64,000 nucleotides of DNA from contig CAZNSM010000002.1 in NCBI GenBank assembly GCA_964575615.1, positions 5,862-69,861 of the forward strand. The letters run 5' to 3'. Position numbers and translations under genes: made by a program. The notes below the pieces were generated by a model. The model was given only the letters and a program-made list of their open reading frames with translations. It was not told the DNA's origin and did no database searches. Shown here piece by piece: positions 39,442 through 57,731 of the stretch. Origin of the DNA: an uncultured Pirellulales bacterium (GTDB taxonomy: Bacteria > Planctomycetota > Phycisphaerae > Sedimentisphaerales > Anaerobacaceae). The first letter of the stretch is position 1. Each line of letters starts with the position of its first letter.

Positions 39442-40277
39442 TCGCTATTCGCGAATACGATACGAAAGTCGCGGTGCCCACGACGCCTCCTGACGACGAA
39501 GGATGGATCCGGCAGTGGCACGGGCTGTACATGCTGGCCGAATCGTTCTCGCAGGAGAGTTGGCAGGGTCACGCGCAGTTGTTTTCGGGTCCTTCCTATC
39601 CGGCGCACGCACTGGAGGCCTTTGCCCTGATCTCGATCCTGCGTCACTTTGCTGGGCTCGATCGCTTCCACTTCATCGAACTGGGCAGCGGGCGGTCACC
39701 CTGGTGCCTGACCGTGGCCAGCGTGGTCGCGAACCGCCTGTTCGAGACGCGAATCGCTGACTACTTCGCGCTGGCGGTCGAGGCGGAGCCGCATCATTAC
39801 ATCTGGTCGGCGCTGCACTTTCTGCGACAGGACATTCACGGCGAGGTCGTTCACGGCGCGGTGGGCCGCAGCCGAGGGACCTGTCGTTTCAAGGCCGACA
39901 CCGACCCGGCGGCCCACATGGGACAGGCGGTCCGGCCCGACGGCAACATCGTGGTCGAATGCTACACGATCGAGGACCTGATGCGCGTCCACGGTCTGGC
40001 GCGCGTTCACGCAGTGCACATGGACATCCAGGGCGAGGAGGTCAACGCGGTGATCGGAGCGCAATCCTCGCTGGACGCCATCGACTTCTTTATCATTGGA
40101 ACGCACGGATCGCAGATCGAAGCCGAACTGAAACGATGGCTCGGGCGCACGCATCGGCTGGTGCTGGAGCTGCCGCGAGGTGGATCGCTGCACCTGGCCG
40201 GCATCGATCGGCCCTTCGTCTCTGCGGATGACGGCGTTCAAGTTTATCAGCGAGAAGCATTGTGTCGGGGAACCTGA
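39438..40277 (+). CDS. FkbM-family methyltransferase-like protein (279 aa)
   Basis: 'FIELGSGRSPW' and 'VHAVHMDIQGEEVNAVIGA' resemble FkbM-family motifs. ATGA overlap with the upstream stop. Confidence 0.7.
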   Translation: MIAIREYDTKVAVPTTPPDDEGWIRQWHGLYMLAESFSQESWQGHAQLFSGPSYPAHALEAFALISILRHFAGLDRFHFIELGSGRSPWCLTVASVVANRLFETRIADYFALAVEAEPHHYIWSALHFLRQDIHGEVVHGAVGRSRGTCRFKADTDPAAHMGQAVRPDGNIVVECYTIEDLMRVHGLARVHAVHMDIQGEEVNAVIGAQSSLDAIDFFIIGTHGSQIEAELKRWLGRTHRLVLELPRGGSLHLAGIDRPFVSADDGVQVYQREALCRGT

Positions 40278-42334: not shown

Positions 42335-43170
42335 GAGTGCTGCAAGTCATGCCGAAGCGCAAAGGCGCCGGCAATATCCTGCTGCAATACCGCAACAAGG
42401 TCACGTCCAGCAACGGCGAAGACGGCATCATCGAGTACATCGCGGCGAGGATGAACGTCGCTCCGGGCTATTGCGTCGAATTCGGCGCCTGGGACGGCCG
42501 CCTGGGAAGCAACACGTGGAACCTTCTGAATCATCGAGAGTGGAAGGGCCTGCTGATCGAAGCGGACCCCGCCAAGTACGCCCAATTGGAGAACCTGTAC
42601 CGCAACCATCCCGGCGTGGTGACCGCCAACGCCTTCGTCGGCTGGCAGGGCGACGCGGCGCTGGACCGGCATTTGGAGCGGTACGGCGTGCCTGCCGACT
42701 TCGCACTGCTGAGCATCGACATCGACGGAAACGATTGGCACGTCTGGCGGTCTCTGACGCGGTTTCGGCCGCGGATCGTTGTGATCGAGTTCAACAACCA
42801 CGTTCCCAACGACATTCTCTTCATCCAGGAAGCGGATATCGCGGTGAACCAGGGCAGTTCACTTCTGGCGATGATCGAGCTGGGCAAGCAGAAGGGATAC
42901 GAGTTGGTCTGCACTCTGGGGTGCAACGCCTTCTTCGTGCCCCGGGAGTATTTTGCCCTGTTCGGCATCGAGAACAACCATATCGATGCCATGTTCGACG
43001 ACACGCGGACGGAAACGAGAGTGTTCCAGTGCTACGACGGTACGCTGGTCCTGGCGGGGAAGAAGTCGCTGAACTGGCACAAGATCGACTTCTGTGACGA
43101 GGACATCCAGATTCTGCCCGCTTCGCTGCGACGGTACGGCAAGCGGCTGGATGTCTCCCCCACGACCTGA
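42331..43170 (+). CDS. FkbM-like/SAM-methyltransferase-like protein (about 279 aa)
   Basis: 'SNGEDGIIEYI...YCVEFGAWDGRLGSNTWNL...WKGLLIEADP' and 'LLSIDIDGNDWHVW...PRIVVIEFN'. ATGA overlap with the upstream stop. Confidence 0.65.
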   Translation: MRVLQVMPKRKGAGNILLQYRNKVTSSNGEDGIIEYIAARMNVAPGYCVEFGAWDGRLGSNTWNLLNHREWKGLLIEADPAKYAQLENLYRNHPGVVTANAFVGWQGDAALDRHLERYGVPADFALLSIDIDGNDWHVWRSLTRFRPRIVVIEFNNHVPNDILFIQEADIAVNQGSSLLAMIELGKQKGYELVCTLGCNAFFVPREYFALFGIENNHIDAMFDDTRTETRVFQCYDGTLVLAGKKSLNWHKIDFCDEDIQILPASLRRYGKRLDVSPTT

Positions 43171-43223: not shown

Positions 43224-46200
43224 ATGCACGCAGTGAACGATACACCCTACTTGAGCGTGGTGGCCACGTCGCGAAACGACGATCACGGCGGCAATCTGGT
43301 GCTGCGCATGCAGTTGTTCGTCCAGTGCCTGATGGCCCAGGCGAAGCGGCACCGCCTGAAGACGGAACTGATCCTGGTGGAATGGAATCCGCCCGCCGAC
43401 CGTCCCCGGCTGAGGGAGGCGCTGCGCTTCGACGCCCATCATCCGTTCTGCTCGGTGCGCATCGTCGAGGTCCCGGCGGCGATCCACGCTCGCTATCGGC
43501 ACGCGCAGGCCTTGCCGGTGTACCAGATGATCGCCAAGAACGTGGGCATTCGCCGGGCGCGCGGCCGTTTCGTCCTGGCGACGAACGTGGACATCGTGTT
43601 CTCCGATCCGCTGTTTGCCCGCCTGGCGAAGCAGGATCTTCAGTCCGGGCGCTGCTATCGCAGCATCCGCCACGATGTGGACAACGCATTGACGTCCGGG
43701 ATGCCTGTCGAAGCGGTCCTGGACTATTGCCAGAGCCATTTGATCCGCGTGAACCAGCGAGAGTGCTCGCTCAACGTGCGTGACGGGTCCAGACATGTCG
43801 TCTACCGTCCGGGTGTGAGTGAGGCGCAGCTTGGGCACCCGAAGCTGTTCACCAACGGTTGCGGCGATTTCACCCTTCTGGCGCAGGAGGACTGGTCTCG
43901 TCTGCGCGGCTACGCGGAACTGGACATGTTCTCCTTCCATCTGGATTCACTGTTCCTGCACTGTGCGTACTACGCCGGGATCGCCGAACACGTGTTTCCC
44001 GACGACCACGTGCACTACCACATCGAGCACCAGGAGGGGTGGACCCCGGAGATTCATCGCGACCGAACGCTGGACGCCCGGTTGGACAAGGGACAGATCG
44101 ATCGTCTGGACAACGCCTCCCTGCGCCGGCTGCTGGACCGCATGCGAAACGAGGGAAAACCGCTGATCTTCAACGACGCGAACTGGGGCCTGGCCAACGA
44201 CCATTTGGCCGAAGAGCGCGTGACCATTGCGGATTGGGAACGAACGGAACCGCAGGAGGCCGCGAGCGCGGGCAAAGCGGCCGATACAGCGTGGGCTAAA
44301 GCCCATCCTACGTATCTGAGCGTCGTGGTGACGACGCGGAACGATGACCACGGCGGGAATCACCTCCATCGGTTCCAGGTCTTCCTCGACCATCTGGCCG
44401 ACATGTGCGCGCGGCATCGCCTCGCGGCCGAGCTGATCGTGGTGGAATGGAACCCCGACCCCTCGCGGCCGTCGCTGGTCCAGGCGATGCGCTGGCCCGA
44501 TCCGTCGCGACTGGCGAGCCGGGTGATCGTTGTTCCTCCTGAGATTCATCGATCGTACCGGAACTCCGACAAGTTCCCGTTGTTCCAGATGATCGCCAAG
44601 AACGTGGGAATTCGGCGGGCCCGAGGGCAATACGTTCTGGCGACCAACATGGACGTGCTCTTCTCTGACGAACTGGCCGCCTGGCTGGCCCGGCGGGAGC
44701 TGCGGGAGGACTGTGTCTACCGCATCGACCGGCACGATGTGGGCCAGACCGCGATCCCGTCGGGATTGTCGCGCGACGAGGTCCTGGAGTTCTGCGCCCG
44801 TCACGTGGTGCGCGTCCACGGGCAGCATGGCACCTGTGCGTGGGGCGATCCGCCGCGGGTCGGCGATCCGGACCGACTGCACAGCCATGCCTGCGGCGAC
44901 TTCACCCTGATGGCGCGCACCCAGTGGGAGCGGCTCAAAGGCTATCCGGAATTCCCCCTGTGGTCGATCTATCTGGACGGCCTGCTGCTTCATGCGGCGC
45001 GCGCCGTCGGTCTGGAGCAGAAGATCCTTCGCGAGCCACTGCGCCTCTACCATGTCGAGCATTCGCTCGGCTGGGCGGTGAACCAGGACACCGTCAAAGA
45101 GCGACCGAGCCTGGATTACCACAAGGAATACCAGCCCCTGTGCGCGGAGATGCTGCGTACTCACAAGGCGCTGGACGTGAATTCGGAGAACTGGGGCCTG
45201 AAGGATAAGGCGCTGGAAGAGTGTGAGCCTGGAGCGCGCGGTTTGCCGCCGGCGTCGATGACGTGCACTGCCGGCGAGCGGCCGGACGGCTTGTCGGACA
45301 AGATCGTCCGCTCCTGGATCGACCGCATCAGCTCCACGGAGAATCGACTCTACTACCGAGACCAGTCCGCACAGACCCTGATCGCTCTGGCCCGCTATGC
45401 CCGCACAATGAATCCCACGGTGGTCGTGGAGCTGGGAACGCTGGCCGGGCTTTCGCTGCGCACCTGGATCGCCGCGGCCGAACGCGCCAGGATCTACGCG
45501 GTCGATCTGAGCTTCCAGACCTTGCAGGAGACCGGACGCGTTCTGCCCCTGGACCTGTCGCGCGTCACTCTGCTGGAGCAGGACATCCTCAAGACGGATT
45601 TTGCATCCCTCTGGACCGCGCAGGACCGGGTGATCTTCTTCGTGGATGCGCACGATCTGCCCGGCGTGCCGATCATGGAGCACGTGCTGACGAGGGCGCT
45701 TCCGGCCTTGCCGGACGGCAGCCTGGTGGTCGTGGACGATCTGTGGTTCAGCGCCGAAAGACTGACGCGCGACAACGCCAAGGCGTTTCTGGACAGCCGC
45801 GTGGTTGCAGAGATCGACGAGCTGCAATGCTTCGAAGGGTATTACGCGCCGTACCACGAAGGCGGCTCGTTCATGGGCTTTGCCGAGGTTATCCCGCTGC
45901 TGAAATTCGTCAACGCGCACGGCATTCTGCTGGCCTGCGAGAAAGGGGGCAAGCAGGTCTCGTTCGTGTGGCGAAGCGCCTTGCGAGAGGCAGTCAGATC
46001 GCGCGGGGCAGGTTCAACGGAGCCGGCCGAGTGCTACGGTTCGGTGTTGCACAATCCGCTGACCTCTGTTCCCGTGCCGGCGCCGCTGCGGGAAATGATG
46101 GACGGCCTCGCCCAGGAGTACCGGCAGAAGAAGATCGTGCCGGTAGCGGAACGCCTGGCCAGGCTCCTGGAGCAGTATCCCAACGATCCGGGTTTGTCCT

Positions 46201-49200
46201 ATGCCCTGGCAGTTTGCCTGGCCCGCTGCCGCGAGCTGACGCGCGCCAGAGACATCCTCGGTCGCGTCGTCCGCGACGGTGCCGATCCGCGTTGCCGTCG
46301 GCTGTTCGACGATCTTGTCGCGCGGGTTGGACCCGGTGGCACGGCGTCGTCCCGAGTTCCTTCCTCGCCGCCGCAGGACGGAGAGGGGCTGACGATCTTC
46401 GCGATGCCCAAGCCGTTTGAGGGACACATCGCGACCATCCAGAAGAACGCGATCCGAAGCTGGGCCCGGCTGCGGCCGGCCCCGCAGATCATCCTCTTCG
46501 GCGACGAGCCGGGGACACGTCAGATCGCGCAGGAGGTCGGCGCCTGTCACGTGCCCGACATCGAGCGCAACGAATTCGGAACGCCCCTGGTCAATAAGCT
46601 GTTCGAGGAGGCCCAGAAGCGCGCTTCGCATCGGATCGTCGCTTACGTGAACGCCGACATCATTCTTTTTGAGAGCTTCGTAAAGGGCGTGCGGGAGGTC
46701 CAGTCGCGTCTTGCGAAGTTCCTTCTCATCGGCCAGCGCTGGGACCTCACGGTGCTCGACGAGATCGACTTCGGCCGGCCCGACTGGCCCAGCATGCTGC
46801 AAGCCCAGATGCAGGAACGTGCGATGCTGCACGGCGAGTGCGGCCTGGACTACTTCGTGTTTCCCAAAGGGGTGTACCCCGAGATTCCACCGTTTGCGAT
46901 CGGGCGAATCGCCTGGGACAACTGGCTGGTCATGGCTCCGCACCGGGCCGGCGTTCCGGTCGTCGACGGCACCGAGTTCATCACGGCGGTCCATCAGGAC
47001 CACGATTATGGACACGTCGCCGGAGGCCGGCGTGGCGCCTGGAGCGGCGCAGAGGCCTCGCGCAACCGCGCCTTGGCCGGAAAGGTGGATGATTCGGCCT
47101 ATGCCTCCGGGGCCGAGTGGGTCCTGCGGCGAGATGGGCGGCTGGCCGAATCGCGGCCGCGAGAACCGGTGTTCGGCAGCACGGCGTACCGGGAGTATCG
47201 CCATGCCTGGCTGGCGAAGGAGGCGCGACGATTGATGGCCCTCGACCGAATGGAGCTGGCGGCGGCCAAGTGGGAGGAGACGCTCCCGATTCTCGAGCGC
47301 CTGCTGATTGCGGCACGGCGCAAGGGAAGCTCTCCGGACTCGGACGGTGTCCGACTGGCCGAATGCTATGCGACCGCGTGCGTGTCACTGGCCCAGTGTC
47401 ATATGCAACTGGGTTGCCACGATCGAGTCGTGGCGGACTACACGCGGCTGCTGGAGACCTCCCTTTTCGAGATTCCGCAGAAGCAGCGTGACGACATCCA
47501 GCGGGTGTGCGATCGGCTGCGCGAGCGTCTGCCGCAGAGCAAAGACCCTCTGGTGCATTCGCCCGTCGATCGACAGAAGCGATCCGCTCCGGCCGAAACG
47601 GTTCAGCCCTCGAGATGCTGTGGGGCGGCGAGACCGGGCCTCGGTGAGAAGCGGCTGGCCCTGATCGTCTCGATTCCGGATCGCGCCGACGATTTGCGCC
47701 GTCTCCTCGTGGACCTCGAAGACCAGGTGGACGATATCCGCATTCTGCTGAACGAGTACGAAACGGTCCCGGAGGACCTGTATCGTTTCGCCAAGGTCAC
47801 TCGCGTCGAAGCCAGTCCGAAGGGCGAGTTGTATGCCAGCGGGGCCTGGGACTTGCTGATGCCGGATGACGAGGGGTATGTGCTCGTGATGGACGACGAC
47901 ATCAAGTATCCGCCGGATTATGCCGACACGATGATCGCGAAGATCGAGGAGCATCAGCGTCGCGCCGTCGTCGTGGTCCACGGGATGGATTTCCGTCCGC
48001 CGTTTGCCGACTTCGTCGTGGATCGGAACATGTATCATTTCGAAACCGCTTGTCGTCAGGATCGTGTGGTGCATGCCGGAGGCGTGGGGACGCTGGTGTT
48101 CCACACCAGCACGATTCGCCCCCGGAGCCGTGACTTCCCGAACCCTAATTTCCGCGACCTGTGGTTTGCCGTTCTGGCGGCCAAACATGAGGTGCCCATC
48201 GTGTGCATCGCGCACGACGCCGGCTGGCTGCTTGCCAAAAGGATGCGCGGCAGACAACTGTGGCGCATGGCCTACGAACAAGGCCAGAGGGACCTGAAGA
48301 ATGAGGTCTTCCGAACCCGCCTTCTGCCTTTGCTGAACATCGACGTGCTCCAGACCCACGCGACCGATCATCGCTTCACCATCTTCTGCTTCACCAACGG
48401 TCGTAGCACGTTCGACTACTGCGTCCGATCGCTGACGGATTCCTGGGACCAGCACGAGAAGACCGTCGTGCTGCGAGATATGGACTTCTTCGAGGCCACT
48501 GCCCAATGCCTCGAAGATTGTGAGACACCGTACTTCTTCAAGGTCGACGACGATTTTCTCCTCCACCCCCAAGCCATCGCCTACATGCGAAAGAAGGTGC
48601 TGGAGTATCCTTGTCCGGAGGAACTGGGGATCTACTACTGCCATCTGTGGGAGGACTGGACCAGCCGCGTGCGACAGAGCATCAAGGTCTACCGGGCCGA
48701 GGCCCTGCGTCGGATCGGCGGGTTCCAGGCGAACGATCAGGGGAAGGTGGACGAGGCGACCAAAGCAGCGCTGGAGCGGGCCGGGTTCAAGGTTGTTGAG
48801 GACCCCAGCGTGGTGGCACTTCATGCCTGCGGCACTTGGGAAGAGCAGTTGGAGTACGAGCGGCTCTGGAGCGCGATGGCCGATGCGCCCTACAAGAAGC
48901 CCACACATGATGCGATGAAGGCTTACTGCGGAACCAAATCGCTCGATACGCAATACGCCATGAGGTTGGGGACGCTGGAGTCCATCAACCGGCAGTTGAA
49001 CACTCCGTTCCACCGCTTTCTGGTCGAGAGCGCAGCGGACTCTCCCAGCAGCGCGCTACCGGAGAGCGAGGTATCCGACTCCTCGGCGCATGTGGCGGAG
49101 GATACTGCGGCCGGCGGAAGCCTGCTTCATCCGTCCTCCCGCCCTCGGCGACAGAGGGTACGCGATCGCCTTCTGCGGGCAGAGCCGACGGCGCGACGCG

Positions 49201-52200
49201 GATCGCAACCCGACGCCGGACGTCGGCCACGAGTCACCGTGGTGCTGGCGTGCCGCGATGGGGAGCGACACCTGCCGGAATGTCTGGACAGCATTCTGAA
49301 GCAGACCCTGTCGGAGTGGGAGCTGTTCTTGCTCGACGACGGCAGCACGGACGGCACGCGGCAGGTCATGGAAAAGTACGCCGCCCGCGATGCGCGCATC
49401 CGGCCCTTCTACTTCGACCAGAGCGCCGGGCCGTACATTCGCCGCAATTTCGCCATCGAGCGCGCCGGCGCTCCTTTCGTCGTGATCCAGGACGCCGACG
49501 ACCTCATGTGCCCCGAGAAGCTGGAGCGGCTGTGGTTGGCCATCACCCAGGACGACCGTCTTGGCGTGGTCGGCTCGTTCTACCACATGTTTCTCGATGA
49601 GTACCAGGGGGCGGAACACAGCGATACGGTCGTCCTGAAGACGACGCACGAGCAGATCCTGGAAGAATACCGAAACGCGGCCGTCTGTGATTTCTGCTGG
49701 CATGGCTCGGCCATCATCCGCAAGCGCCTCTTTGAGGATATCGGGCCCTACGACGAGAACCCCTTCGCCTCGGACTCCTTCTGGCTGGCCAAGGTCGCGG
49801 AGTATGCGTGCCGAAGCGAGGCGGTTCGCTTGATGAATCTGCCGGAGGTGCTGACGCTGCGACGGATGCACGTCAGCTCTCAAACGGGCAGCCTGCCGGC
49901 GTTCGATCCACGCAGTCGGCGGGCGCACTTCAAGGAGCACCGCCGCCAGAAACTGTCGGAATTGATTCGAACGCTCCATGCCGACCCTCGTGCCGATATC
50001 AAGGCGGTCCTGCGTCGCACCGTTTGTGGCGACTTCATCAAGCAGAACGCACGGCTCTTCCCCGAATGGGAAAACGCGCCTTTGACCGGTCCGATCGTCC
50101 AGGGTTTCCTCGGACGGATTTACAGTCACTTCACGAAGGGGCAGTTCGTTCAATGCCTCTGGACGAGCCGGATCGTGGAACAACTGGTGACGGGCATCGC
50201 GCAGAACGTGCGAAGCTACGAACTGATCAAGGGTCTGGCCTATTTCGCACTCGGGTACCCTTGCGAGAGTCGGGAATGCCTGGACCGGGAATGTGACATT
50301 CATGGGACCCCTGTGGCGATGCAGTTCCGCGCGGACTGGCTCGATCGGGGCAACGGTCTCCAGCCGCGAGCCCAGCGTTTGAGCCTCATCGAAAGGGCCC
50401 TCTTTCATCCGGACGGCAGACGAACGGAGCCGGTCGAGTGTCTTCCGGACAGCGGCGCCAAAGGACCGACGGGCGTGTCGGTTATCGTGTCTCTCGCGGG
50501 GGATGCGGCGTCGTGGGCCGATGTGATCGCTTCTTTCGACGCACAGACGGAGAAGGACTTTGAGGTCATCGCACTGGTTCCAGCGCCTTTGGCGGAGGAC
50601 CTGGCGCGTCGGGCCGCACACGTCGGCTTTCGTCTCTCCGTCCTCGGCACGAGGGAGGGAGCGAGCCCGTGTCGCTACAGGAATGCGGCAGCCGAGCAGG
50701 CGCAGGGCCGCTGCCTTGCGTTCCTGGGAGAGTACGTGGCGCCGGACCGTGACTTCGTCGCACGTGTACAGCAGCATTTCCAGGAGAAGGACCTCTGCGG
50801 CCTGCGAGGCCGGATTCTCTGTGAGGGCCGTTCCTCCACTCCCCTCCGATTCGACTTGGGGCCGGACCAGATGGCCGCTGCATGGGACATCGACGAATTG
50901 TGTGTCTTTGACAGAGAGACCTTCTTCCGCCTCGGCGGGTTCCCCGCCGTGCCGTTCGATCACGGGGCGATTCACCTCTCGCATCGGGCGTACGCCGATC
51001 TGCGTGACGGTCGGCGTCGTATTCTCTATTGCCCCGATGTGCTCTGTCGCTACCGTGGACCGGAGGAGGCGCGGGTTGGTCTCGTAGATCGGTTCGCCAT
51101 GGAGAATCGCTTCGCGGTCAGTCAAGCGCTGCTCGCGGTCGATCTCCAGGAGGACCAGGAACGTCATGTATGGGGATTCCGCGAGTTCCTGGAGGGGTTG
51201 TACTGGCGAGACACCGGTACGCCGGAAGAGTGCTTCCGACGGTTTCTCCGGACCAGCCTGTTTTTCCGGGAGCGCGACCCTCGCCTGGCAAGCGAGTGGG
51301 CGCGGATGGCGCTGCGGCTGCGTCCGGACTGCATTGAGGCCCGTTGTGTCCTGGGTTCTGCGCAGGCGATGCTGGGCCAGCCCGGTGACGCATGCGTTCT
51401 TCTCGAAACGTGCCTTGAGCCGTTGGAGGAATTGATCGCCTTGGAGCGGCTGGATCGCGCGCGAAGCGAGTTCAGAGGCTATGCCGATATCGTGGAATGT
51501 TACGTTGCCAGTTGTACGCTTCTGGCCGAGTGCTATATGAAGACGGGCCGGTACGATCGCGTGGGCGTCACCTATGCGCGACTGCTTGGGAACCCCCATG
51601 TCCATCTCGATCCGGCTCAGCGGCAGAACATGGAACGCATACGAGACCGCCTGGTTTCGTCGCACCGGGCCGAGATCGTGCCCGTGCCCTCGCATGGGGC
51701 CGGATGCGGACGCGATGTGGCGCCGGTGAATTCTGCTCCGCCACGCAGGATGGAGCCGCAAAGCCCGGCGGTGCCATCGACAGATGGGTCAGGCCGGGAT
51801 CGTGCGTCGGAAAACCCGTGCGTTGCGAAGCTGACGGAGCTGGAACGCATGTATCGATCGATGCCGCCAGGATCGGCGTCCCGACATGCGGTGGCCAGCC
51901 GGCTCGCCAAACTGTTCCGCAAGGCCGGCGCGACCGACAAGAGCAGGATGCTGGAGATGGAAGCCCGGGCCATCGGCAACACCATGGCCTACGAAGAGGC
52001 CCGGCGGACCAAACCGGACGTCTGTTCCCATCGCCCCGTGACCGTGGAGTTCAACGTGATCACCCGGTGCAACGGCGGCTGCGTCATGTGCAGCTACGGC
52101 ACAGACGGCGAGATTATGGACCTGGCACAGTTCCAGCATCTCGCGGACGAGTGGCTGCCGGCCGCCCGCGATGCCCATCTGATCGGCGGCGAGGTCCTGC

Positions 52201-55200
52201 TGCACCCGCAGTTCTACGAGCTCTGCGAATACGCCAATCGTTTTGGCGTGTGCCTCGGTATGACGACCAACCTGTCGACGCTGGCGGGACGGAGGGCAGA
52301 GGCGATCACGAGGTTCTTCCACACGGTTCGGGTCTCTGTGGATGGGGCCACCCGACAAACCTATGAATCCATACGTCGGCGTCTGAGCTTCGAGCGACTC
52401 TGTCAGAACCTGGCGGTTCTGGCGGACATCAAGCGAAGCAGGCCGGAACTCGAGATGGAACTGGCCTTTGTCGCGATGCGCCAGAATATTGCGGAATTGC
52501 CCGACGTGATCGAAATGGCCGCCCGGTACGCCTTCGATAGCGTCGCCGTCAATTTCGTCCATGTGTACAATGCTCAGACCTTGGACGATTCGCTGCTGTT
52601 TCACCGAGAACTGGCGAACAAGCACCTCGACCTGGCCCGGGCGGCAGCGGCCCGACTCGGCCTGGCTCTGGACATTCCCGACAACTTCGACCTGAGCCGG
52701 ACGCCCTACGTGGCCTCGCAACAACTGACGGAAGGCCACAGACAATGCACCCGGCCCTGGCAGCGCGTTCGACTGCTCATCCATGGCGAGGTCATTCCCT
52801 GCTGTCATCTCCACGACCTTCCGATGGGCAATGCGCTGGCGGAGTCCTTTGAGGGGGTGTGGAATGGCGAGAAGTTCAGAGGACTGCGACAGGCCATCCG
52901 GGACAGTCGCGATGAAATGCCCGAGCGATGTAAGCACTGCCGCATACTCATGCGAGGAGCCGATTCCAACGACGCGATGATGCACGTCAATCCGGCTCTT
53001 GTGCCCGAACTGAAGCAGCGCCTCCAGACGCGGGCCAGTACGCCGGCGGTGGCTGTATCCACTGCGTCCGCGCCGCGTGTATCCGTGCTGGCAGTCAGCG
53101 TGGTGTTGGCGTGCCGCAATGGGGCCGAGCACCTGCCGGAATGTCTGGACAGCGTCTTGGCGCAGACCCTGTCGGAGTGGGAATTGCTGCTTCTCGACGA
53201 CGGGAGCACCGACAGTACGCGCGGGATCATGGAGGCGTACGCCGCCCGCGATGCGCGCATCCGGCCCTTCTACTTCGACGAAAGCGCCGGACCGTACGTC
53301 CGTCGCAATTTCGCCATCCGACAGGCCCGTGCACCGTTTGTCTCGATTCAGGACGCTGACGACATCATGTGTCCGGACAAGCTCCGGCGTCTGTATGACG
53401 CAATCGGCGGCGACGAGCGTCTCGCGGTCGTGGGTTCGTTCTACCGGAAGTTCCTGGATGATTTCACCGGCATCGAATCCACGGAGGCCGTGACGTTGCC
53501 GGCAACGCACGAAGAGATTCTAAAGGCATACGACGCCCGGTCCATGTGGGATTTCTCCTGGCACGGCTCGGCGATCGTCCGGCGGATGCTGTTCGAGGAG
53601 ATCGGGCTGTACGACGAGAACCCCTTCGGCGCCGACTCGTTCTGGCTGGCCAAGGTAGCCGAATACGCCCGCCGCACGGAGCGTATCCGGTTGTGCAATA
53701 TTCCGGAGTCTCTCACTCTGCGGCGGGTGCACAGCGAATCGCAGGTGGGGCAACTGCCGGCGATGGACCCCCGCAGCCGACGAACGCGCTATTCGCAGTA
53801 CTGCCTCAGCCGGCTCCAGGAGGTGGTCAACACGGTGGCGCGCGACCCCTCGATGGATGTCGCCCGGGCGCTGCGCGAATGCACCTGCGCCGACTTCCTC
53901 CCGCGCTTCGGCGCGCAGATCGCCGAATGGGAGCGCGCGCCGATGGACGAAGGGATCGTGGTTCGCTTCCTTCAGCGTGCCACAGAGTGCTTCCGAATGC
54001 AGCGTTACGTCAGTTGCGTGCAGACCCTGTCCGCGTTGGAAGGCATGGACCCGGAACTGCCGCATCGCCTCGCCAATGTCGATCTGGTCCGCGCGCTAGC
54101 GCTCTATGGGCTGGGGCAGAAAGAGCGGTGTCAGATTTATCTGCGCAGGGAGATGGCCCATCACGACAACCCGGTCGCCCGGCAGTTTTACGAGGAGGCC
54201 TTCACGCGAGGCGTGCCGATCGACGTGCACCAGTGGGGCGCTGAGCATGTGGACGCCGTCGCATTGCGAATCACGGATGCAAGGCTTTCGGCCCCGTCTG
54301 CGCCGGCAGGGCCCGGCGTCGAGACGGCGGCGGGCGAGTCGCCCAAGGTCACGGTGATCACCGCGTGCCGGAATGCCGCTCGGTTCCTCCCGGAGTGCCT
54401 GGACAGCATTCTGGCCCAAACGCTGGGCCAGTGGGAGCTGTTTCTGCTCGACGATGCCAGCACGGACGACACCCGCCGGATCATCGAGGAATACGCGCGA
54501 CGGGATGGACGCATCCATGCCCATTTCTTCGACGACCAGAAGGGACCGTACGTCCGGCGGAATTTTGCCATCGAGCGGGCCCGCGCGGATTTCATCGTGA
54601 TTCACGATGCCGATGACCTGATGTGCTCCACCAAGCTGGAGACTCTGTACGACGAGATCAGCCGGGACGACCGGCTGGCGATGGTGGGCTCGAACTACCG
54701 TACATTCCTCGAAGCGTATCGCGGTCCGGAATACAGCGAATGCAGCCAACTGCCGTTGAAGGACGACGAGATTCTGACCCGGTTCAAATCCTGGCAGCAC
54801 GGGATGAGTCACGGATCGGCGATCATCCGCAAGACCCTCTTCGCCGAGATCGGTCTCTACGACGAAAATCCATTCTCCGCCGACTCCTTCTGGTCGGCGA
54901 AACTGGCTTTGTATGCCGAGGCCGGCCGGCCCATCTTCGTGAAGAATGTGCCCGAGAGCCTGACCCTGATCCGTCTGCACGCGATGAACCACACGCGGGT
55001 CGTCTCGACACTCGATCCGCGCAACCGAAGGACGCGGTACCGGCAATACTGCGAAGGCCGGCTGTGGCGCATCCGTGAGCGGCTGAAGTCGGAACCCGGC
55101 ATGGATATCGGACGGGAACTGCGCCAGTGTGCCTGCGGCGACTTCCTGACCCGTTTCCAGGCCCAGATCCTCGCCTGGGAGAGTGAGCCTTTGAACGATC

Positions 55201-55577
55201 GAGTGGTCCCGGAGTATCTGGACATCGCCTTGTTGCTGTTCAACAGGGGCTGTCACGTCAGTTGCGTCAATGTCCTCAACAACGTGGAGGCATTCGATCC
55301 GGGCGTGGCCGCTCGTGTGGCCGGCTATGATCTGCTTCGAGGTCTGGCGTTCTTCGCGCTGCGGATGAACGGGCCAGCGCGGCTGTGTTTGGATCGCGAG
55401 ATTCGTCGTCACGGCACGGCCGCGGCCCGCCGATTTGTCGCAGATGCCTTCGAGTCCACCAAGCCGGTCGATCTGGCGTCCTGGTGTCAGGAGTGCGGGG
55501 AGCGATTCGGTCTGCGCCTGGTGGAGGCCGGACCGCCAAAATCGCGGCAGACGACGCTTTCGTCCGTCGGGGTCTGA
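43224..55577 (+). CDS. Giant multidomain glycosyltransferase/methyltransferase/radical-SAM polyprotein (about 4,117 aa)
   Basis: Uninterrupted 12.35-kb ORF with recognisable enzyme-like motifs along its whole length. These are two 'YLSVV..(S/T)RNDDHGGN' GT-A-like modules, an MT-like module, 'IFAMPKPFEGH', 'VMDDDIKYPPDY' and 'FFKVDDDFLLHP' GT-like modules, three 'ACR(D/N).....LPECLDS.L.QTL..WEL.LLDD.STD' GT2 modules, one divergent GT2-like module, a 'CNGGCVMC' radical-SAM/SPASM domain, and TPR-like spacers. Confidence 0.85.
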   Translation: MHAVNDTPYLSVVATSRNDDHGGNLVLRMQLFVQCLMAQAKRHRLKTELILVEWNPPADRPRLREALRFDAHHPFCSVRIVEVPAAIHARYRHAQALPVYQMIAKNVGIRRARGRFVLATNVDIVFSDPLFARLAKQDLQSGRCYRSIRHDVDNALTSGMPVEAVLDYCQSHLIRVNQRECSLNVRDGSRHVVYRPGVSEAQLGHPKLFTNGCGDFTLLAQEDWSRLRGYAELDMFSFHLDSLFLHCAYYAGIAEHVFPDDHVHYHIEHQEGWTPEIHRDRTLDARLDKGQIDRLDNASLRRLLDRMRNEGKPLIFNDANWGLANDHLAEERVTIADWERTEPQEAASAGKAADTAWAKAHPTYLSVVVTTRNDDHGGNHLHRFQVFLDHLADMCARHRLAAELIVVEWNPDPSRPSLVQAMRWPDPSRLASRVIVVPPEIHRSYRNSDKFPLFQMIAKNVGIRRARGQYVLATNMDVLFSDELAAWLARRELREDCVYRIDRHDVGQTAIPSGLSRDEVLEFCARHVVRVHGQHGTCAWGDPPRVGDPDRLHSHACGDFTLMARTQWERLKGYPEFPLWSIYLDGLLLHAARAVGLEQKILREPLRLYHVEHSLGWAVNQDTVKERPSLDYHKEYQPLCAEMLRTHKALDVNSENWGLKDKALEECEPGARGLPPASMTCTAGERPDGLSDKIVRSWIDRISSTENRLYYRDQSAQTLIALARYARTMNPTVVVELGTLAGLSLRTWIAAAERARIYAVDLSFQTLQETGRVLPLDLSRVTLLEQDILKTDFASLWTAQDRVIFFVDAHDLPGVPIMEHVLTRALPALPDGSLVVVDDLWFSAERLTRDNAKAFLDSRVVAEIDELQCFEGYYAPYHEGGSFMGFAEVIPLLKFVNAHGILLACEKGGKQVSFVWRSALREAVRSRGAGSTEPAECYGSVLHNPLTSVPVPAPLREMMDGLAQEYRQKKIVPVAERLARLLEQYPNDPGLSYALAVCLARCRELTRARDILGRVVRDGADPRCRRLFDDLVARVGPGGTASSRVPSSPPQDGEGLTIFAMPKPFEGHIATIQKNAIRSWARLRPAPQIILFGDEPGTRQIAQEVGACHVPDIERNEFGTPLVNKLFEEAQKRASHRIVAYVNADIILFESFVKGVREVQSRLAKFLLIGQRWDLTVLDEIDFGRPDWPSMLQAQMQERAMLHGECGLDYFVFPKGVYPEIPPFAIGRIAWDNWLVMAPHRAGVPVVDGTEFITAVHQDHDYGHVAGGRRGAWSGAEASRNRALAGKVDDSAYASGAEWVLRRDGRLAESRPREPVFGSTAYREYRHAWLAKEARRLMALDRMELAAAKWEETLPILERLLIAARRKGSSPDSDGVRLAECYATACVSLAQCHMQLGCHDRVVADYTRLLETSLFEIPQKQRDDIQRVCDRLRERLPQSKDPLVHSPVDRQKRSAPAETVQPSRCCGAARPGLGEKRLALIVSIPDRADDLRRLLVDLEDQVDDIRILLNEYETVPEDLYRFAKVTRVEASPKGELYASGAWDLLMPDDEGYVLVMDDDIKYPPDYADTMIAKIEEHQRRAVVVVHGMDFRPPFADFVVDRNMYHFETACRQDRVVHAGGVGTLVFHTSTIRPRSRDFPNPNFRDLWFAVLAAKHEVPIVCIAHDAGWLLAKRMRGRQLWRMAYEQGQRDLKNEVFRTRLLPLLNIDVLQTHATDHRFTIFCFTNGRSTFDYCVRSLTDSWDQHEKTVVLRDMDFFEATAQCLEDCETPYFFKVDDDFLLHPQAIAYMRKKVLEYPCPEELGIYYCHLWEDWTSRVRQSIKVYRAEALRRIGGFQANDQGKVDEATKAALERAGFKVVEDPSVVALHACGTWEEQLEYERLWSAMADAPYKKPTHDAMKAYCGTKSLDTQYAMRLGTLESINRQLNTPFHRFLVESAADSPSSALPESEVSDSSAHVAEDTAAGGSLLHPSSRPRRQRVRDRLLRAEPTARRGSQPDAGRRPRVTVVLACRDGERHLPECLDSILKQTLSEWELFLLDDGSTDGTRQVMEKYAARDARIRPFYFDQSAGPYIRRNFAIERAGAPFVVIQDADDLMCPEKLERLWLAITQDDRLGVVGSFYHMFLDEYQGAEHSDTVVLKTTHEQILEEYRNAAVCDFCWHGSAIIRKRLFEDIGPYDENPFASDSFWLAKVAEYACRSEAVRLMNLPEVLTLRRMHVSSQTGSLPAFDPRSRRAHFKEHRRQKLSELIRTLHADPRADIKAVLRRTVCGDFIKQNARLFPEWENAPLTGPIVQGFLGRIYSHFTKGQFVQCLWTSRIVEQLVTGIAQNVRSYELIKGLAYFALGYPCESRECLDRECDIHGTPVAMQFRADWLDRGNGLQPRAQRLSLIERALFHPDGRRTEPVECLPDSGAKGPTGVSVIVSLAGDAASWADVIASFDAQTEKDFEVIALVPAPLAEDLARRAAHVGFRLSVLGTREGASPCRYRNAAAEQAQGRCLAFLGEYVAPDRDFVARVQQHFQEKDLCGLRGRILCEGRSSTPLRFDLGPDQMAAAWDIDELCVFDRETFFRLGGFPAVPFDHGAIHLSHRAYADLRDGRRRILYCPDVLCRYRGPEEARVGLVDRFAMENRFAVSQALLAVDLQEDQERHVWGFREFLEGLYWRDTGTPEECFRRFLRTSLFFRERDPRLASEWARMALRLRPDCIEARCVLGSAQAMLGQPGDACVLLETCLEPLEELIALERLDRARSEFRGYADIVECYVASCTLLAECYMKTGRYDRVGVTYARLLGNPHVHLDPAQRQNMERIRDRLVSSHRAEIVPVPSHGAGCGRDVAPVNSAPPRRMEPQSPAVPSTDGSGRDRASENPCVAKLTELERMYRSMPPGSASRHAVASRLAKLFRKAGATDKSRMLEMEARAIGNTMAYEEARRTKPDVCSHRPVTVEFNVITRCNGGCVMCSYGTDGEIMDLAQFQHLADEWLPAARDAHLIGGEVLLHPQFYELCEYANRFGVCLGMTTNLSTLAGRRAEAITRFFHTVRVSVDGATRQTYESIRRRLSFERLCQNLAVLADIKRSRPELEMELAFVAMRQNIAELPDVIEMAARYAFDSVAVNFVHVYNAQTLDDSLLFHRELANKHLDLARAAAARLGLALDIPDNFDLSRTPYVASQQLTEGHRQCTRPWQRVRLLIHGEVIPCCHLHDLPMGNALAESFEGVWNGEKFRGLRQAIRDSRDEMPERCKHCRILMRGADSNDAMMHVNPALVPELKQRLQTRASTPAVAVSTASAPRVSVLAVSVVLACRNGAEHLPECLDSVLAQTLSEWELLLLDDGSTDSTRGIMEAYAARDARIRPFYFDESAGPYVRRNFAIRQARAPFVSIQDADDIMCPDKLRRLYDAIGGDERLAVVGSFYRKFLDDFTGIESTEAVTLPATHEEILKAYDARSMWDFSWHGSAIVRRMLFEEIGLYDENPFGADSFWLAKVAEYARRTERIRLCNIPESLTLRRVHSESQVGQLPAMDPRSRRTRYSQYCLSRLQEVVNTVARDPSMDVARALRECTCADFLPRFGAQIAEWERAPMDEGIVVRFLQRATECFRMQRYVSCVQTLSALEGMDPELPHRLANVDLVRALALYGLGQKERCQIYLRREMAHHDNPVARQFYEEAFTRGVPIDVHQWGAEHVDAVALRITDARLSAPSAPAGPGVETAAGESPKVTVITACRNAARFLPECLDSILAQTLGQWELFLLDDASTDDTRRIIEEYARRDGRIHAHFFDDQKGPYVRRNFAIERARADFIVIHDADDLMCSTKLETLYDEISRDDRLAMVGSNYRTFLEAYRGPEYSECSQLPLKDDEILTRFKSWQHGMSHGSAIIRKTLFAEIGLYDENPFSADSFWSAKLALYAEAGRPIFVKNVPESLTLIRLHAMNHTRVVSTLDPRNRRTRYRQYCEGRLWRIRERLKSEPGMDIGRELRQCACGDFLTRFQAQILAWESEPLNDRVVPEYLDIALLLFNRGCHVSCVNVLNNVEAFDPGVAARVAGYDLLRGLAFFALRMNGPARLCLDREIRRHGTAAARRFVADAFESTKPVDLASWCQECGERFGLRLVEAGPPKSRQTTLSSVGV
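43245..45240 (+). repeat. Tandem duplication of a GT-A-like module of about 330 aa inside the giant ORF (copy 1 about 43245-44290, copy 2 about 44309-45240)
   Basis: Collinear protein similarity ('YLSVVATSRNDDHGGNLVLRMQLF...LILVEWNP' vs 'YLSVVVTTRNDDHGGNHLHRFQVF...LIVVEWNP'; 'YQMIAKNVGIRRARGRFVLATNVDIVFSD' vs 'FQMIAKNVGIRRARGQYVLATNMDVLFSD'). A 23-nt identical run, cagatgatcgccaagaacgtggg, is shared. Confidence 0.8.
49230..50460 (+). repeat. GT2 + helical-tail module, copy 1 of 3 (inside giant ORF)
   Basis: Paralogous to 53090-54300 and 54344-55574. It shares a 43-nt identical run with copy 2 (49376-49418 = 53237-53279). Confidence 0.8.
52030..52960 (+). other. Radical-SAM/SPASM domain embedded in the giant ORF
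   Basis: 'VEFNVITRCNGGCVMCSYG' is a CxxxCxxC cluster. It is followed by 'IGGEVLLHP' and the tail 'CTRPWQRVRLLIHGEVIPCCHLHDLPMGNALAESFEGVW...CKHCRI'. Confidence 0.8.
53090..54300 (+). repeat. GT2 + helical-tail module, copy 2 of 3
   Basis: 'VVLACRNGAEHLPECLDSVLAQTLSEWELLLLDDGSTDSTRGIMEAYAARDARIRPFYFDESAGPYVRRNFAI...IQDADDIMCP' is collinear with copy 1 over about 400 aa. Confidence 0.8.
54344..55574 (+). repeat. GT2 + helical-tail module, copy 3 of 3 (C-terminus of giant ORF)
   Basis: 'VTVITACRNAARFLPECLDSILAQTLGQWELFLLDDASTDDTRRIIEEYARRDGRIHAHFFDDQKGPYVRRNFAIERA...IHDADDLMCS'. It sits directly in tandem with copy 2. Confidence 0.8.
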
Positions 55578-55703
55578 AAAAACGGATCAGCGGCTTTAGG
55601 ACGATGCGAGTCCGAACGATAACACTATCGGGGTCGATCGTTCCGACAGCCCTGGGGATTTCTGTGCGCCGCCGGGTCGGCGGCCAATGAAGGGTCGATA
55701 ATC

Positions 55704-57731
55704 ATGGGCGAATTGCGGCTTTCCGGCCTGTCGACGGGCATTGACACCGAGACACTGGTCAAGCAACTGGTCGCGATTGAAGGGCAACGGCGCGACAAGT
55801 ACGTCGAACGAAAAGAGACTTGGGACGAGCGCCGGGAGGCCTTGAACACGCTGGAAACGAAGCTGGAGGCCCTGCAAAAGGCGGCCGAAGGTCTTTCCGA
55901 CGCCAAGAAGCTGCGTTCCTTCGGAACCAAGACCAGCGATGAGGATATCCTTTCGGCCGAATCGTCCAACACGGCTTATGAGGGCAGCCATTCGGTCGTC
56001 GTGAATCGGCTGGCGAATGCGGAACGCTGGGTGCACACCAGCGGCCTGGAATATGCGGAAAGCCTCGTTGGGGCCGGCACGTTCATCTTCTCATACAACA
56101 ACGAAGAGATGGTCATCACCACCACGGAGGACACGACGCTGGAGGAACTCGTGGGGCTGATCAACAACGACGCGAGTAACCCGGGCGTGACCGCGAATTT
56201 GCTGTCCTATAATGACGCGTATCATCTCGTGCTGAACGGCAACGACGCCGGCTCGGACTACGAGATCAAGATCAACACCAGCAACACGGAGGTGTGGCAA
56301 ACGGCCTCGGCCCTGACGGTCGGGGGCGAAAACGTCGCCCTGTCCGATAAGATCCGCAAGCTCGATCAATTCAGCGGCGTGCTGGCGGGCGACGAGTCCA
56401 TCACCATCTCGGGCACGATGCACGACGGCACGGTGGTCAACCACACGCTGAACGTCAACGAGAATACGACCCTGGATCATCTCCTCGGAGAGATCAATGA
56501 CGCCTTCGCAGGCACTGCGACCGCGACGCTGGTCAACGGCCAGATCCGGCTGACCAGCGAGACCAGCGGCGTCAGCCAGATGACGCTCAGCCTGGCGTAC
56601 GATTCCGGATCGGGGTCCACTACGCTGGACCTGCCGGCGATCAGCCAGTCCACGCAGGGGGGCAGTGTGACGGCCAGCCTGGCGGGCTTTGCCGGGTCGG
56701 ATTTCGTCGAGACGCAATCCGCCCAGGATTCTCAGATCAAGGTGGATGGCTTTCCGCCGGGCGCCGATGAGTGGATCAGTCGCAGTTCGAACACGGTTGA
56801 CGACGTCATTTCCGGCGTGACGCTGCATCTGCACGACGCCGGGACCGTGCAAGTGAGCCTGACCCGCGACACCGAATCGGTCAAGGACAAGCTCCAGTCG
56901 TGGGTGGACGCCTACAATGACGTGGTGGCGTTCATCGCGGCAAACACCGGATACGACAGCACACAGGGGATCGCGGGCCTTCTGATGAGCGACTCGACCG
57001 TCACGAGCATTGCCAACAACCTGCGGACGTCCCTGGTTCGGCGAACCAGCGGCTTCGTTATGGACGTGGACAGCTTCCTCATGCCGGGACAGATTGGTCT
57101 CGAACTCGACCGCGACGGTCTGCTCTCGCTGGATTCGACGGCGTTCGATGAAGCAATCGCGAAGGACTACATGGGCGTGCTTTCTCTGATCGGGGCCGAC
57201 AAGACGGGCAGCTCCGACAGCAACGTGGTTCAGTTCTACAGCGCCTCGAGCAAGAACACGCAAGGCGGGACGTACAGCGTGCAGGTGACGGTTTCCGGAG
57301 GAGTCATCACCAGCGCCAAGATTAAGCCGGAAGGCGAATCCGCCTATCGCGATGCGATATTCGCCGGCAACATTGTCACCGGAGACCGAACGTTCGATAA
57401 CAATGGAGCGCCGCTGTACGCGGAGAATGGCCTGACGCTCAGCGTCGATCTCAGCCAGGACGGCACCTTCAACGCCACGGTCCGCGTCAAGCAGGGATTC
57501 ACCGGGGCGATGAAGGACGTGCTCGAGCGGTTCCTGAAGCCCACGAACGGATGGCTCACACTGGACCAGGAGTCGGTCGAGTCGCAGATTGAGAACCTGG
57601 AGGACCGCATCGCGACAGAGGAAAACCGCCTGTCGCGCGTGGAGGCGCGTCTGGTTGCGAAGTATGCACGGCTCGAGAGGACTCTGACCCTGCTGCAAAG
57701 CCAGATGTCGGGGCTTCTGTCGAACGAGTAG
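55704..57731 (+). CDS. fliD: Flagellar filament cap protein FliD (675 aa)
   Basis: 'LSGLSTGIDTETLVKQLVAIEGQR' at the N-terminus and a C-terminal coiled coil ('RIATEENRLSRVEARLVAKYARLERTLTLLQSQ'). Confidence 0.9.
   Translation: MGELRLSGLSTGIDTETLVKQLVAIEGQRRDKYVERKETWDERREALNTLETKLEALQKAAEGLSDAKKLRSFGTKTSDEDILSAESSNTAYEGSHSVVVNRLANAERWVHTSGLEYAESLVGAGTFIFSYNNEEMVITTTEDTTLEELVGLINNDASNPGVTANLLSYNDAYHLVLNGNDAGSDYEIKINTSNTEVWQTASALTVGGENVALSDKIRKLDQFSGVLAGDESITISGTMHDGTVVNHTLNVNENTTLDHLLGEINDAFAGTATATLVNGQIRLTSETSGVSQMTLSLAYDSGSGSTTLDLPAISQSTQGGSVTASLAGFAGSDFVETQSAQDSQIKVDGFPPGADEWISRSSNTVDDVISGVTLHLHDAGTVQVSLTRDTESVKDKLQSWVDAYNDVVAFIAANTGYDSTQGIAGLLMSDSTVTSIANNLRTSLVRRTSGFVMDVDSFLMPGQIGLELDRDGLLSLDSTAFDEAIAKDYMGVLSLIGADKTGSSDSNVVQFYSASSKNTQGGTYSVQVTVSGGVITSAKIKPEGESAYRDAIFAGNIVTGDRTFDNNGAPLYAENGLTLSVDLSQDGTFNATVRVKQGFTGAMKDVLERFLKPTNGWLTLDQESVESQIENLEDRIATEENRLSRVEARLVAKYARLERTLTLLQSQMSGLLSNE

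Follow-up and report, generated by a model that had tools for sequence, protein, structure and literature searches.

What is a protein of more than four thousand residues, assembled largely from glycosyltransferase (GT) modules, doing among the genes of a bacterial flagellum? The question is raised by a stretch of 64,000 nucleotides (nt) from an uncultured Pirellulales bacterium (GTDB lineage Bacteria; Planctomycetota; Phycisphaerae; Sedimentisphaerales; Anaerobacaceae), which corresponds to positions 5,862 to 69,861 of the forward strand of contig CAZNSM010000002.1 in assembly GCA_964575615.1. The whole of this stretch is referred to below as the window, and all positions follow its numbering. 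An earlier note, based on the letters of this DNA, had singled out one open reading frame (ORF) of about 12.35 kb and read its product as a possible single-chain assembly line for a complex methylated glycan; the present analysis partly supports this interpretation, with the architecture and the context confirmed and the function inferred. The answer that we favour, with more confidence than doubt and on the strength of sequence and gene context, is that a flagellar glycosylation island here includes a gene for a single-chain enzyme, soluble and cytoplasmic, that builds a glycan. In one respect the earlier picture requires correction: the giant protein is not a one-off, but a member of a lineage-wide family.

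A single continuous gene

The region between 43224 and 55577 is one real, continuous gene.

43224..55577, + strand: giant gene, 4,117 amino acids (aa), 466 kDa and pI 6.4 as predicted from the ATG

Its frame is uninterrupted from 43218 (GTG) or 43224 (ATG) until the stop at 55577, and the ATG at 43224 agrees with the start of the database copies (MHAVND...). At the base composition of the window a stop codon is expected about every 35 codons and a run of 4,119 codons without one has a probability of about 1e-52; the second-longest stop-to-stop frame of the window has 1,031 codons. In every 300-codon block of the giant ORF the GC content at third and second codon positions (GC3 0.73-0.83, GC2 0.37-0.49) follows the coding pattern seen in the neighbouring genes, so that, as the earlier note had maintained, the giant frame is no high-GC shadow; the large antisense ORFs across the region are such shadows. 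Its single ORF of about 4,117 aa is reproduced in independent assemblies. The exact protein is already on record, in a 90% cluster with six full-length copies (4,115-4,117 aa) on separate contigs, and an orthologue of 4,112 aa (89% identical) occurs with the same gene order in a different Sedimentisphaerales metagenome-assembled genome (MAG). The longest of the orthologous frames found, at locus L010, spans 4,156 codons from stop to stop. Repeats inside the giant gene reach at most 81% nucleotide identity over 300 nt, which makes repeat collapse or chimerism introduced by the assembler unlikely; mis-assembly through collapsed repeats was rejected on this ground.

Modules of the giant protein

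The gene product can be divided into the following modules and linkers, and the module coordinates proposed earlier proved correct to within a few dozen bases.

43245..44258, + strand: module A1 (aa 8-345), GT-A fold, family without a Pfam model
44307..45242, + strand: module A2 (aa 362-673), paralogue of A1
45321..46013, + strand: methyltransferase (MT) module (aa 700-930), class I, S-adenosyl-L-methionine (SAM)-dependent, similar to cation-dependent O-methyltransferases (Methyltransf_24)
46101..46343, + strand: linker T1, TPR_19 at 38.5 bits, above the cut-off (aa 976-1027)
46386..47213, + strand: module B (aa 1055-1330), GT-A fold, family without a Pfam model, motif 'YVNAD' (NxD)
47226..47618, + strand: linker T2, helical/TPR-like, weak TPR_1 and TPR_2 matches
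47661..48299, + strand: module C (aa 1480-1692), GT45, GT-A of the KfiA-like alpha-N-acetylglucosamine (GlcNAc)-transferase type
48366..49043, + strand: module D (aa 1715-1940), probable GT-A, motif 'KVDDD'
49230..50453, + strand: module G1 (aa 2003-2410), canonical GT2 with a helical extension
50469..51143, + strand: module E (aa 2416-2640), GT2-like with degenerate motifs
51291..51773, + strand: linker T3, helical/TPR (TPR_19 E 2.7e-3, TPR_7 E 4.5e-3), followed by a low-complexity linker
52029..52958, + strand: module R (aa 2936-3245), radical SAM with a twitch/SPASM-type auxiliary-cluster domain
53088..54308, + strand: module G2 (aa 3289-3695), canonical GT2 with a helical extension
54342..55574, + strand: module G3 (aa 3707-4117), canonical GT2 with a helical extension

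Eight GT-A-type modules (A1, A2, B, C, E, G1, G2 and G3) are thus supported by the tools used, E being probably inactive to judge from its residues, and they are accompanied by one O-methyltransferase-like module, one radical-SAM module and three TPR or helical linkers. At least nine GT-like modules had been announced before; eight of these stand, while the ninth, D, matches known families below threshold. When the whole protein and ten segments of it were compared with Pfam and NCBIfam, only GT2, radical SAM, SPASM and TPR were recognised, with nothing significant for A1, A2, B or D. Modules A, B and D, used as profiles against the PDB sequences, returned no match, and alignment of the module profiles with one another by hhalign left A, B, C and D unlinked to GT2 or to each other (probability <=3%). 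Since neither the hhalign comparison nor the profile searches gave a family, fold prediction was required for A and B.

Modules A1 and A2 are 41% identical over 324 aa (E 6e-76); A1 carries NxD ('ATNVD') where DxD would be expected, together with the invariant motifs EWNP, KNVG..R..G, CGDF and H.EH. The AlphaFold2 (AF2) model of module A, built from 16 homologues, reached a mean predicted local distance difference test (pLDDT) score of 84.5, and all of its top 50 Foldseek matches in the PDB are GT-A enzymes, headed by the chondroitin polymerase K4CP (4e-10) and followed by WrtF, GalNAc-T2 and PmHS2. Module B, the best-conserved module of the whole family, gave an AF2 model with a pLDDT of 90.6, for which Foldseek placed WrtF (3e-7) ahead of PcManGT, the Leptospira GT 6p61, K4CP and TarP; its top 50 are again GT-A enzymes, except for a CMP-NeuAc synthetase at rank 25. 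With a Foldseek probability of 1.0, A1/A2 and B have GT-A folds, as had been supposed of the two N-terminal modules, the segment at 46381-47090 having been called GT-like; no CAZy or Pfam family could be assigned to them.

The remaining transferase modules are closer to known families. Module C, formerly described simply as GT-like, is indeed a glycosyltransferase and can be placed more narrowly in GT45: phmmer aligned it in the PDB to residues 305-513 of the Pasteurella heparosan synthase PmHS2 (E 9e-26), which form the GlcNAc-transferase half of that enzyme, and to residues 9-219 of E. coli KfiA (5z8b, E 8e-17). It has the motif 'MDDDI' (DDD), and its donor specificity is a prediction. G1, G2 and G3 are paralogues of about 415 aa, 47-54% identical over some 400 aa and each with some 160 aa of helical extension at the C-terminus, and belong to GT2: PF00535 (Glycos_transf_2) scores 323 bits against a cut-off of 23.3 in three stretches (aa ~2003-2180, 3292-3460 and 3707-3822), which bears out their earlier designation as canonical GT2, and their DxD motifs read QDADD, QDADD and HDADD. 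Module E resembles the GT2 module profile in hhalign (96.9% probability, E 1.3e-10; Pfam E 0.03), so that its former description as a divergent GT2-like segment stands as far as similarity is concerned; its DxD is missing and it may be non-catalytic. The motif is replaced by G/A-E-x in all orthologues ('FLGEYVAP' in the giant protein), and 'ALVPAP' stands in the giant protein where 'VDDGS' would be expected. From these substitutions E is probably derived from GT2 without being a working GT2.

Module D, which the earlier note had also listed as GT-like, is weakly GT-A-like through matches below threshold, and its DDD motif is invariant among homologues; we regard it as a probable GT-A. An exhaustive profile search extended the D family, which again lacks a Pfam model, to 449 representatives; in most of them the domain stands by itself in a protein of about 220 aa, and seven of 50 sampled members match GT2 weakly (best 4e-5, sub-threshold). 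A chimeric D+E query retrieved homologues for D only. In five of the same 50 members (family P0043-P0182) a D-type domain is fused to Radical_SAM, which means that fusion of a glycosyltransferase with a radical-SAM domain is recurrent. A, B and probably D represent widespread GT-A families without a Pfam model, at least two and probably three in number.

The MT module is consistent with its earlier methyltransferase label, though weakly so in Pfam: PF13578 matches with E 7e-5 and 24.1 bits, below the cut-off of 26.3. The same PF13578 match is precomputed for several homologues of the module, its profile finds the O-methyltransferases 4ymg and 4qvk in the PDB (E 6e-4), and the motifs 'ELGTLxGxS' and 'DAHD' are invariant. 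Module R belongs to the radical-SAM enzymes with a SPASM/twitch domain, PF04055 scoring 39.9 bits against 29.5 (aa 2944-3072) and PF13186 45.0 against 21.5 (aa 3175-3239); both matches, like that of TPR_19 in linker T1, lie above the Pfam cut-offs and agree with what had been read from the letters. A CX3CX2C motif is found at aa 2949, with invariant cysteines at segment positions 246, 264, 265, 307 and 310. No specific NCBIfam equivalog cut-off was reached by module R, the scores remaining far below. Its profile matches five PDB sequences at E<=0.1, namely two of BtrN (best 6e-7, in the auxiliary-cluster domain), two of BlsE (5.5e-5, in the core) and 8wm2, 'Fe-S radical SAM' by its label (0.03); we take BtrN and BlsE, both carbohydrate-acting, to be its only recognised PDB relatives. 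Among these matches no peptide-modifying SPASM enzyme was recognised. A peptide-modifying role of the type found with ribosomally synthesised and post-translationally modified peptides was considered for the SPASM domain and may still apply, the carbohydrate-acting nature of the recognised matches speaking weakly against it. As to the linkers, T2 is homologous to part of T3 (40% identical, E 2e-12).

Homologues with 38-77% identity keep the motifs of A, B, MT, D and R without change, which indicates purifying selection.

The flagellar locus and its sugar island

The giant gene is the last gene of a sugar island inserted between flgK-flgL and fliD, so that the assignment to a flagellar locus made previously is correct. 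The features of the island and of its borders are as follows.

26921..30504, + strand: flgK and flgL, upstream border of the island; FlgL TIGR02550 at 166.5 bits against a cut-off of 127.2
30666..32198, + strand: 510-aa protein with N-terminal TPR and C-terminal GT-B (Glyco_trans_1_4)
32111..33907, + strand: GT2 with a C-terminal TPR-like part, 26-29% identical to the G modules
34921..36345, + strand: dehydrogenase of the UDP-glucose/GDP-mannose dehydrogenase family, similar to UDP-glucose dehydrogenase
36254..37102, + strand: class I methyltransferase
37105..39441, + strand: double radical-SAM protein (probable start), two radical-SAM cores and one SPASM domain
39438..40277, + strand: FkbM methyltransferase
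40262..42334, + strand: TPR with Methyltransf_24
42283..43170, + strand: FkbM methyltransferase
55595..55622, + strand: motif TTTAGG-N16-CGATAA resembling a sigma-28 promoter, in the gap that separates the giant gene from fliD
55704..57731, + strand: fliD (filament cap), 127 nt 3' of the giant gene

Upstream of the island the + strand carries, in this order, flgD, flgE, a gene for a PilZ protein, flgF, flgG, flgA, flgH, flgI, an flgJ-like gene, flgN, flgK and flgL. Downstream of fliD, flhB, fliR, fliP, fliO, motB and motA lie on the minus strand. Far upstream of the island, at 5.6-18 kb, are flhA, fliN, fliL, a gene for a FliA-like sigma factor (5662-6483, minus strand) and two for sigma-54 activators. 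The sigma-28-type motif occurs once in the window, and 17 aligned Phycisphaerae loci keep both of its boxes and their spacing; consensus scans for promoters and terminators near both ends of the giant gene were uninformative.

No membrane-spanning hydrophobic segment was found in the proteins encoded between 30666 and 55577 (in the giant protein the Kyte-Doolittle mean over 19 residues never exceeds 1.6), and no match was found among them to polyprenyl-phosphate transferase, phosphoglycosyltransferase, flippase or ABC-transporter families. An island devoid of membrane proteins and transporters fits cytoplasmic protein glycosylation better than the export of a lipid-linked polysaccharide. Nonulosonic-acid biosynthesis genes were not seen within the island. 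The layout of the protein at 30666-32198 is that of FlmG, a flagellin glycosyltransferase discussed below, its Glyco_trans_1_4 match being sub-threshold (24.1 bits against 27); by analogy it is a candidate priming flagellin glycosyltransferase. A gene similar to it is present at the related locus L007. The double radical-SAM gene was called automatically as an ORF of 1,001 aa (36436-39441), and its orthologue at locus L001 has 778 aa and starts right after the methyltransferase gene, so that the start at 36436 is probably an upstream over-extension and 37105 the true one. The C-terminal half of this protein is 22% identical to module R (E 1e-11).

Small ORFs lie between the GT2-TPR gene (32111) and the dehydrogenase gene (34921). 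One of them (34510-34908, + strand; 132 aa), situated between the GT2-TPR/TPR genes and the dehydrogenase, has no family match; the protein at the equivalent position of locus L005 matches FliT weakly, and from this the ORF may encode an export chaperone within the glycosylation island. Three further observations concern the rest of the window. The PilZ gene between flgE and flgF (20570-21853, + strand) encodes 427 aa with the PilZ domain at the C-terminus and may specify a flagellar regulator responsive to cyclic di-GMP. Upstream of the flgD-flgE operon, at 10970-17843 on the minus strand, an 884-aa TPR protein has the two sigma-54-dependent activators, of which one contains a receiver domain, on either side; this arrangement suggests that the flagellar hierarchy includes a sigma-54 tier. 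At the edge of the window that holds no flagellar genes, two DUF488 genes, for 147 and 208 aa, lie side by side (394-1456, minus strand).

A module-shuffling family upstream of fliD

Homologues of 2,500-4,100 aa occur in Phycisphaerae and in other Planctomycetota. When the species genomes of GTDB were scanned with an alignment of module B, 230 related loci were obtained, of which 78 were retrieved. At 24 of these 78 an ORF of 1,800-4,156 aa containing module B ends 110-1,465 nt upstream of fliD, and all 24 are labelled planctomycete MAGs, mostly Sedimentisphaerales or Phycisphaerae. A relative in this position is therefore present in at least 24 species. Five homologues (P0002, P0005, P0007, P0009 and P0012; 37-89% identity) stand directly upstream of fliD, which is then followed by flhB, fliR, fliQ, fliP, fliO and motB. 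The module order differs between species: A-A-MT-B-C-D-G-E-R-G-G, A-A-MT-B-C-D-G-G, MT-B-G-E-R-G, MT-B-C-D-B-G and MT-B-G-G were all encountered. MT-B forms the usual core (20 of the 24 fliD-linked loci), a G module is always the last before fliD, and the upstream sugar-biosynthesis genes vary between the loci of relatives as well. As judged from these sequences, the giant protein is a member of a lineage-wide, module-shuffling family anchored upstream of fliD.

Elsewhere module B belongs to shorter proteins or makes up a whole one (about 300 aa); such cases were found in Desulfovibrionales, Syntrophobacterales, Dehalococcoidia, Melainabacteria, Fervidibacter, Saccharibacteria and cyanobacteria. 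Its link to the dehydrogenase is strong there: a UDP-glucose dehydrogenase gene is present at 28 of the 51 module-B loci without fliD, within about 300 nt in nine, and dehydrogenase-linked B is often accompanied by class I methyltransferase and radical-SAM homologues. We would also like to point out that these genes recur across phyla as a cassette of UDP-glucose dehydrogenase, class I methyltransferase, radical-SAM protein and B-type GT-A, represented in the window by 34921-39441 together with module B. It was seen in Dehalococcoidia, Melainabacteria, Fervidibacter, Saccharibacteria and deltaproteobacteria (loci L037, L042, L049, L059, L061, L064, L066, L069, L073, L077, L081 and L083), where B is often encoded by itself, in a gene for about 300 aa at 0-300 nt from that of the dehydrogenase. 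This composition suggests an uncharacterised pathway for a uronic-acid-derived sugar.

Proposed function and alternatives

If the giant protein is the glycan-building enzyme of a flagellar glycosylation island, its product would be a methylated, uronic-acid-derived O-glycan on flagellin or on another exported axial protein. The island neighbours (the dehydrogenase, the methyltransferases and the double radical-SAM protein) would supply modified nucleotide sugars, and a substrate of flagellar type III export, most likely flagellin, would be O-glycosylated in the cytoplasm prior to export. The candidate for attaching the first sugar is the FlmG-like TPR-GT-B protein; the A modules, whose fold is also like that of protein O-N-acetylgalactosamine (GalNAc) transferases, could do so instead. 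The giant protein would then extend and decorate the glycan, with A1, A2, B, C, D, G1, G2 and G3 each adding one kind of sugar or linkage. The association of module B with UDP-glucose dehydrogenase suggests a donor derived from glucuronic acid (GlcA), and B would thus probably transfer a GlcA-derived sugar, while C would probably transfer an alpha-linked N-acetylhexosamine. The MT module would O-methylate a sugar, either as a decoration or as a cap that terminates the chain. While the glycan grows, module R would act on one of its sugars by oxidation, decarboxylation or epimerisation; the analogy to BtrN and BlsE points to a possible oxidation or decarboxylation, for instance of a glucuronyl residue. 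The TPR segments would keep the modules apart and hold the protein substrate or a chaperone, E may have a purely structural part, and the gain, loss and shuffling of modules between species would generate glycan diversity.

A stronger version of this proposal is that of a collinear assembly line, in which the order and content of the modules would determine how a heterooligosaccharide on a protein is built up, residue by residue, as they do for the products of nonribosomal peptide synthetases and polyketide synthases (NRPS/PKS): the substrate would be held by the TPR segments, the glycan passed from module to module, and tailoring carried out by the in-line MT and radical-SAM modules. We consider this version quite unlikely. 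Were it true, the module shuffling in Phycisphaerae would be a readable code for flagellar glycan diversity, and new glycosyltransferase families would have to be set up for A, B and D.

Several observations weigh against the glycan-building role in a flagellar island, and some of them also feed its rivals. The donor and acceptor specificities of the modules are guesses; the Foldseek TM-scores of A and B are modest, about 0.45, and both have an invariant NxD where GT2 enzymes have DxD. Homologues of D reach known families in sub-threshold matches (GT2 for six of eight, best 4e-4; GT31 Galactosyl_T for five of eight, best 2e-4), and E possesses neither the DxD nor the acidic motif of GT2. Moreover, every sequence comes from short-read MAGs, the 466-kDa polypeptide and its expression being predictions, and the 90% cluster that holds the full-length copies also contains fragments of 143-806 aa from short contigs. 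One might thus suspect an artefact of assembly or annotation that has mis-joined separate genes, or a decaying fusion with most of its modules inactive relics, to which the loss of catalytic motifs in E and the weakness of D would lend colour. This is extremely improbable in view of the six full-length copies on separate contigs and the long orthologues, the negligible chance of such an open frame, its coding-type GC3 throughout, the limited identity of the internal repeats and the invariant motifs of five modules in distant homologues.

The link to the flagellum can be questioned on other grounds. There is no flagellin gene within the window or in the related loci examined, the relative P0010 does not adjoin fliD, and fliD apparently has its own sigma-28-type promoter, so that the two neighbouring genes need not be co-regulated. 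Modules B, MT and A are found in deltaproteobacteria, cyanobacteria, Chloroflexota and other phyla too, as MT-B and A-MT-B proteins or as stand-alone B beside the dehydrogenase, in loci that yielded no homologue of fliD, flhB, flgK or flgL; the chemistry is therefore not specific to the flagellum. Moorena, Saccharibacteria and Dehalococcoidia, which are among these taxa, are not known to be flagellated. The neighbourhood of fliD could then be a lineage-specific accident of gene order, with the enzyme making or modifying a glycoconjugate unrelated to the flagellum, for instance a general protein O-glycan, a glycan of the cell envelope or a glycolipid. We hold this to be very unlikely: the position upstream of fliD in the flgK-flgL...fliD block is kept in relatives that have 37-50% identity to the giant protein and very different module sets, flagellar genes flank the whole island on both sides, the FlmG-like gene shares it, and all island products are predicted to be cytoplasmic, as in known flagellin glycosylation. 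A rather unlikely, more serious competitor is a polysaccharide polymerase, in which GT45 and GT2/K4CP-like modules fed by UDP-GlcA would make a glycosaminoglycan-like or other repeat chain terminated by the MT module, the polymer being carried by flagellin as a long chain or released as a flagellar or cell-surface coat. The kinship of module C with KfiA and with the GlcNAc-transferase part of PmHS2, the fold of module A, which is matched best by K4CP and also well by PmHS2, the UDP-glucose dehydrogenase inside the island with its link to module B, and the triplicated G modules would all suit such an enzyme, and known polymerase-terminators do join several GT modules and a methyltransferase on one polypeptide (PMC11231755). 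What speaks against such a polymerase is that neither the giant protein nor any other island product has a membrane segment, that no ABC transporter, Wzx/Wzy, phosphoglycosyltransferase or synthase-type channel was detected in the island, that known polymerases need two or three modules and not nine different ones, and that module C is absent from many relatives that retain the position at fliD.

Comparison with known systems

Flagellin glycosylation islands are known from Pseudomonas aeruginosa (a-type), Campylobacter and Clostridium, where variable blocks of sugar-biosynthesis, methyltransferase and GT genes lie among late flagellar genes; they encode separate small enzymes, and their content varies between strains. 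The island described here differs in that most of its transferase capacity is fused in one 12.4-kb gene and in its location between flgL and fliD with no adjacent flagellin gene.

The relatives of module R, BtrN (the butirosin 2-deoxy-scyllo-inosamine dehydrogenase) and BlsE (the cytosylglucuronate decarboxylase), are twitch/SPASM radical-SAM enzymes, and the CX3CX2C motif and C-terminal cysteine pattern of R are consistent with one auxiliary cluster. Their identity to R is very low, and they are stand-alone enzymes of antibiotic pathways, whereas R lies between GT modules.

Both precedents invoked by the earlier note are real. In FlmG of Caulobacter crescentus, a protein of 596 aa, a TPR domain binds flagellins and a single GT-B domain glycosylates them by transferring one sugar, pseudaminic acid (PMC7591256). 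The giant protein resembles FlmG as a predicted soluble, cytoplasmic enzyme encoded with flagellar genes and combining TPR with GT domains, and the window gene at 30666-32198 matches FlmG in its layout of N-terminal TPR and C-terminal GT-B; the giant protein differs from FlmG in having some nine GT-A modules, a methyltransferase and a radical-SAM domain, and no GT-B. The second precedent is that of the polymerising GTs of ABC-transporter-dependent O-antigen and capsule systems, such as WbdA, WbbB, WbbM and ORF6(O7) of Klebsiella pneumoniae, which have two or three GT modules, one for each linkage, and methyltransferase terminators; in ORF6(O7) the terminating methyltransferase is fused to two GT2 modules (PMC11231755). 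With these enzymes, and with the bifunctional K4CP and PmHS2, the giant protein shares the presence of several modules per polypeptide with helical spacers between them; its module C is homologous to KfiA and to the GT45 part of PmHS2, and the folds of modules A and B are similar to those of K4CP and WrtF. The known multi-module enzymes, however, act at the membrane on undecaprenyl-linked acceptors and are encoded with transporters, whereas here about nine GT modules and a radical-SAM domain are found in a flagellar locus without a membrane component or transporter.

Giant genes are common in planctomycetes and have been described as encoding surface proteins or NRPS/PKS (PMC5352709). In the searchable literature no comparable flagellar multi-GT or radical-SAM protein was found, in line with the earlier note, which was not aware of one, and the papers found on planctomycete giant genes do not mention one. 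Flagellar glycosylation islands and polymerising GTs of two or three modules are known kinds. The giant protein differs from them in the number of its GT modules, about nine as compared with the two or three catalytic modules of characterised multi-module GTs, in the range of these modules over GT2, GT45 and three families that lack a Pfam model, in the in-line radical-SAM domain, in its predicted solubility without an export partner, and in its membership of a module-shuffling family anchored at fliD. Should the modules act sequentially on a flagellar protein, they would offer a natural system in which to study the template-free programming of a glycan sequence and the way in which fusion and substrate docking give fidelity, and they would provide a parts list for glyco-engineering.

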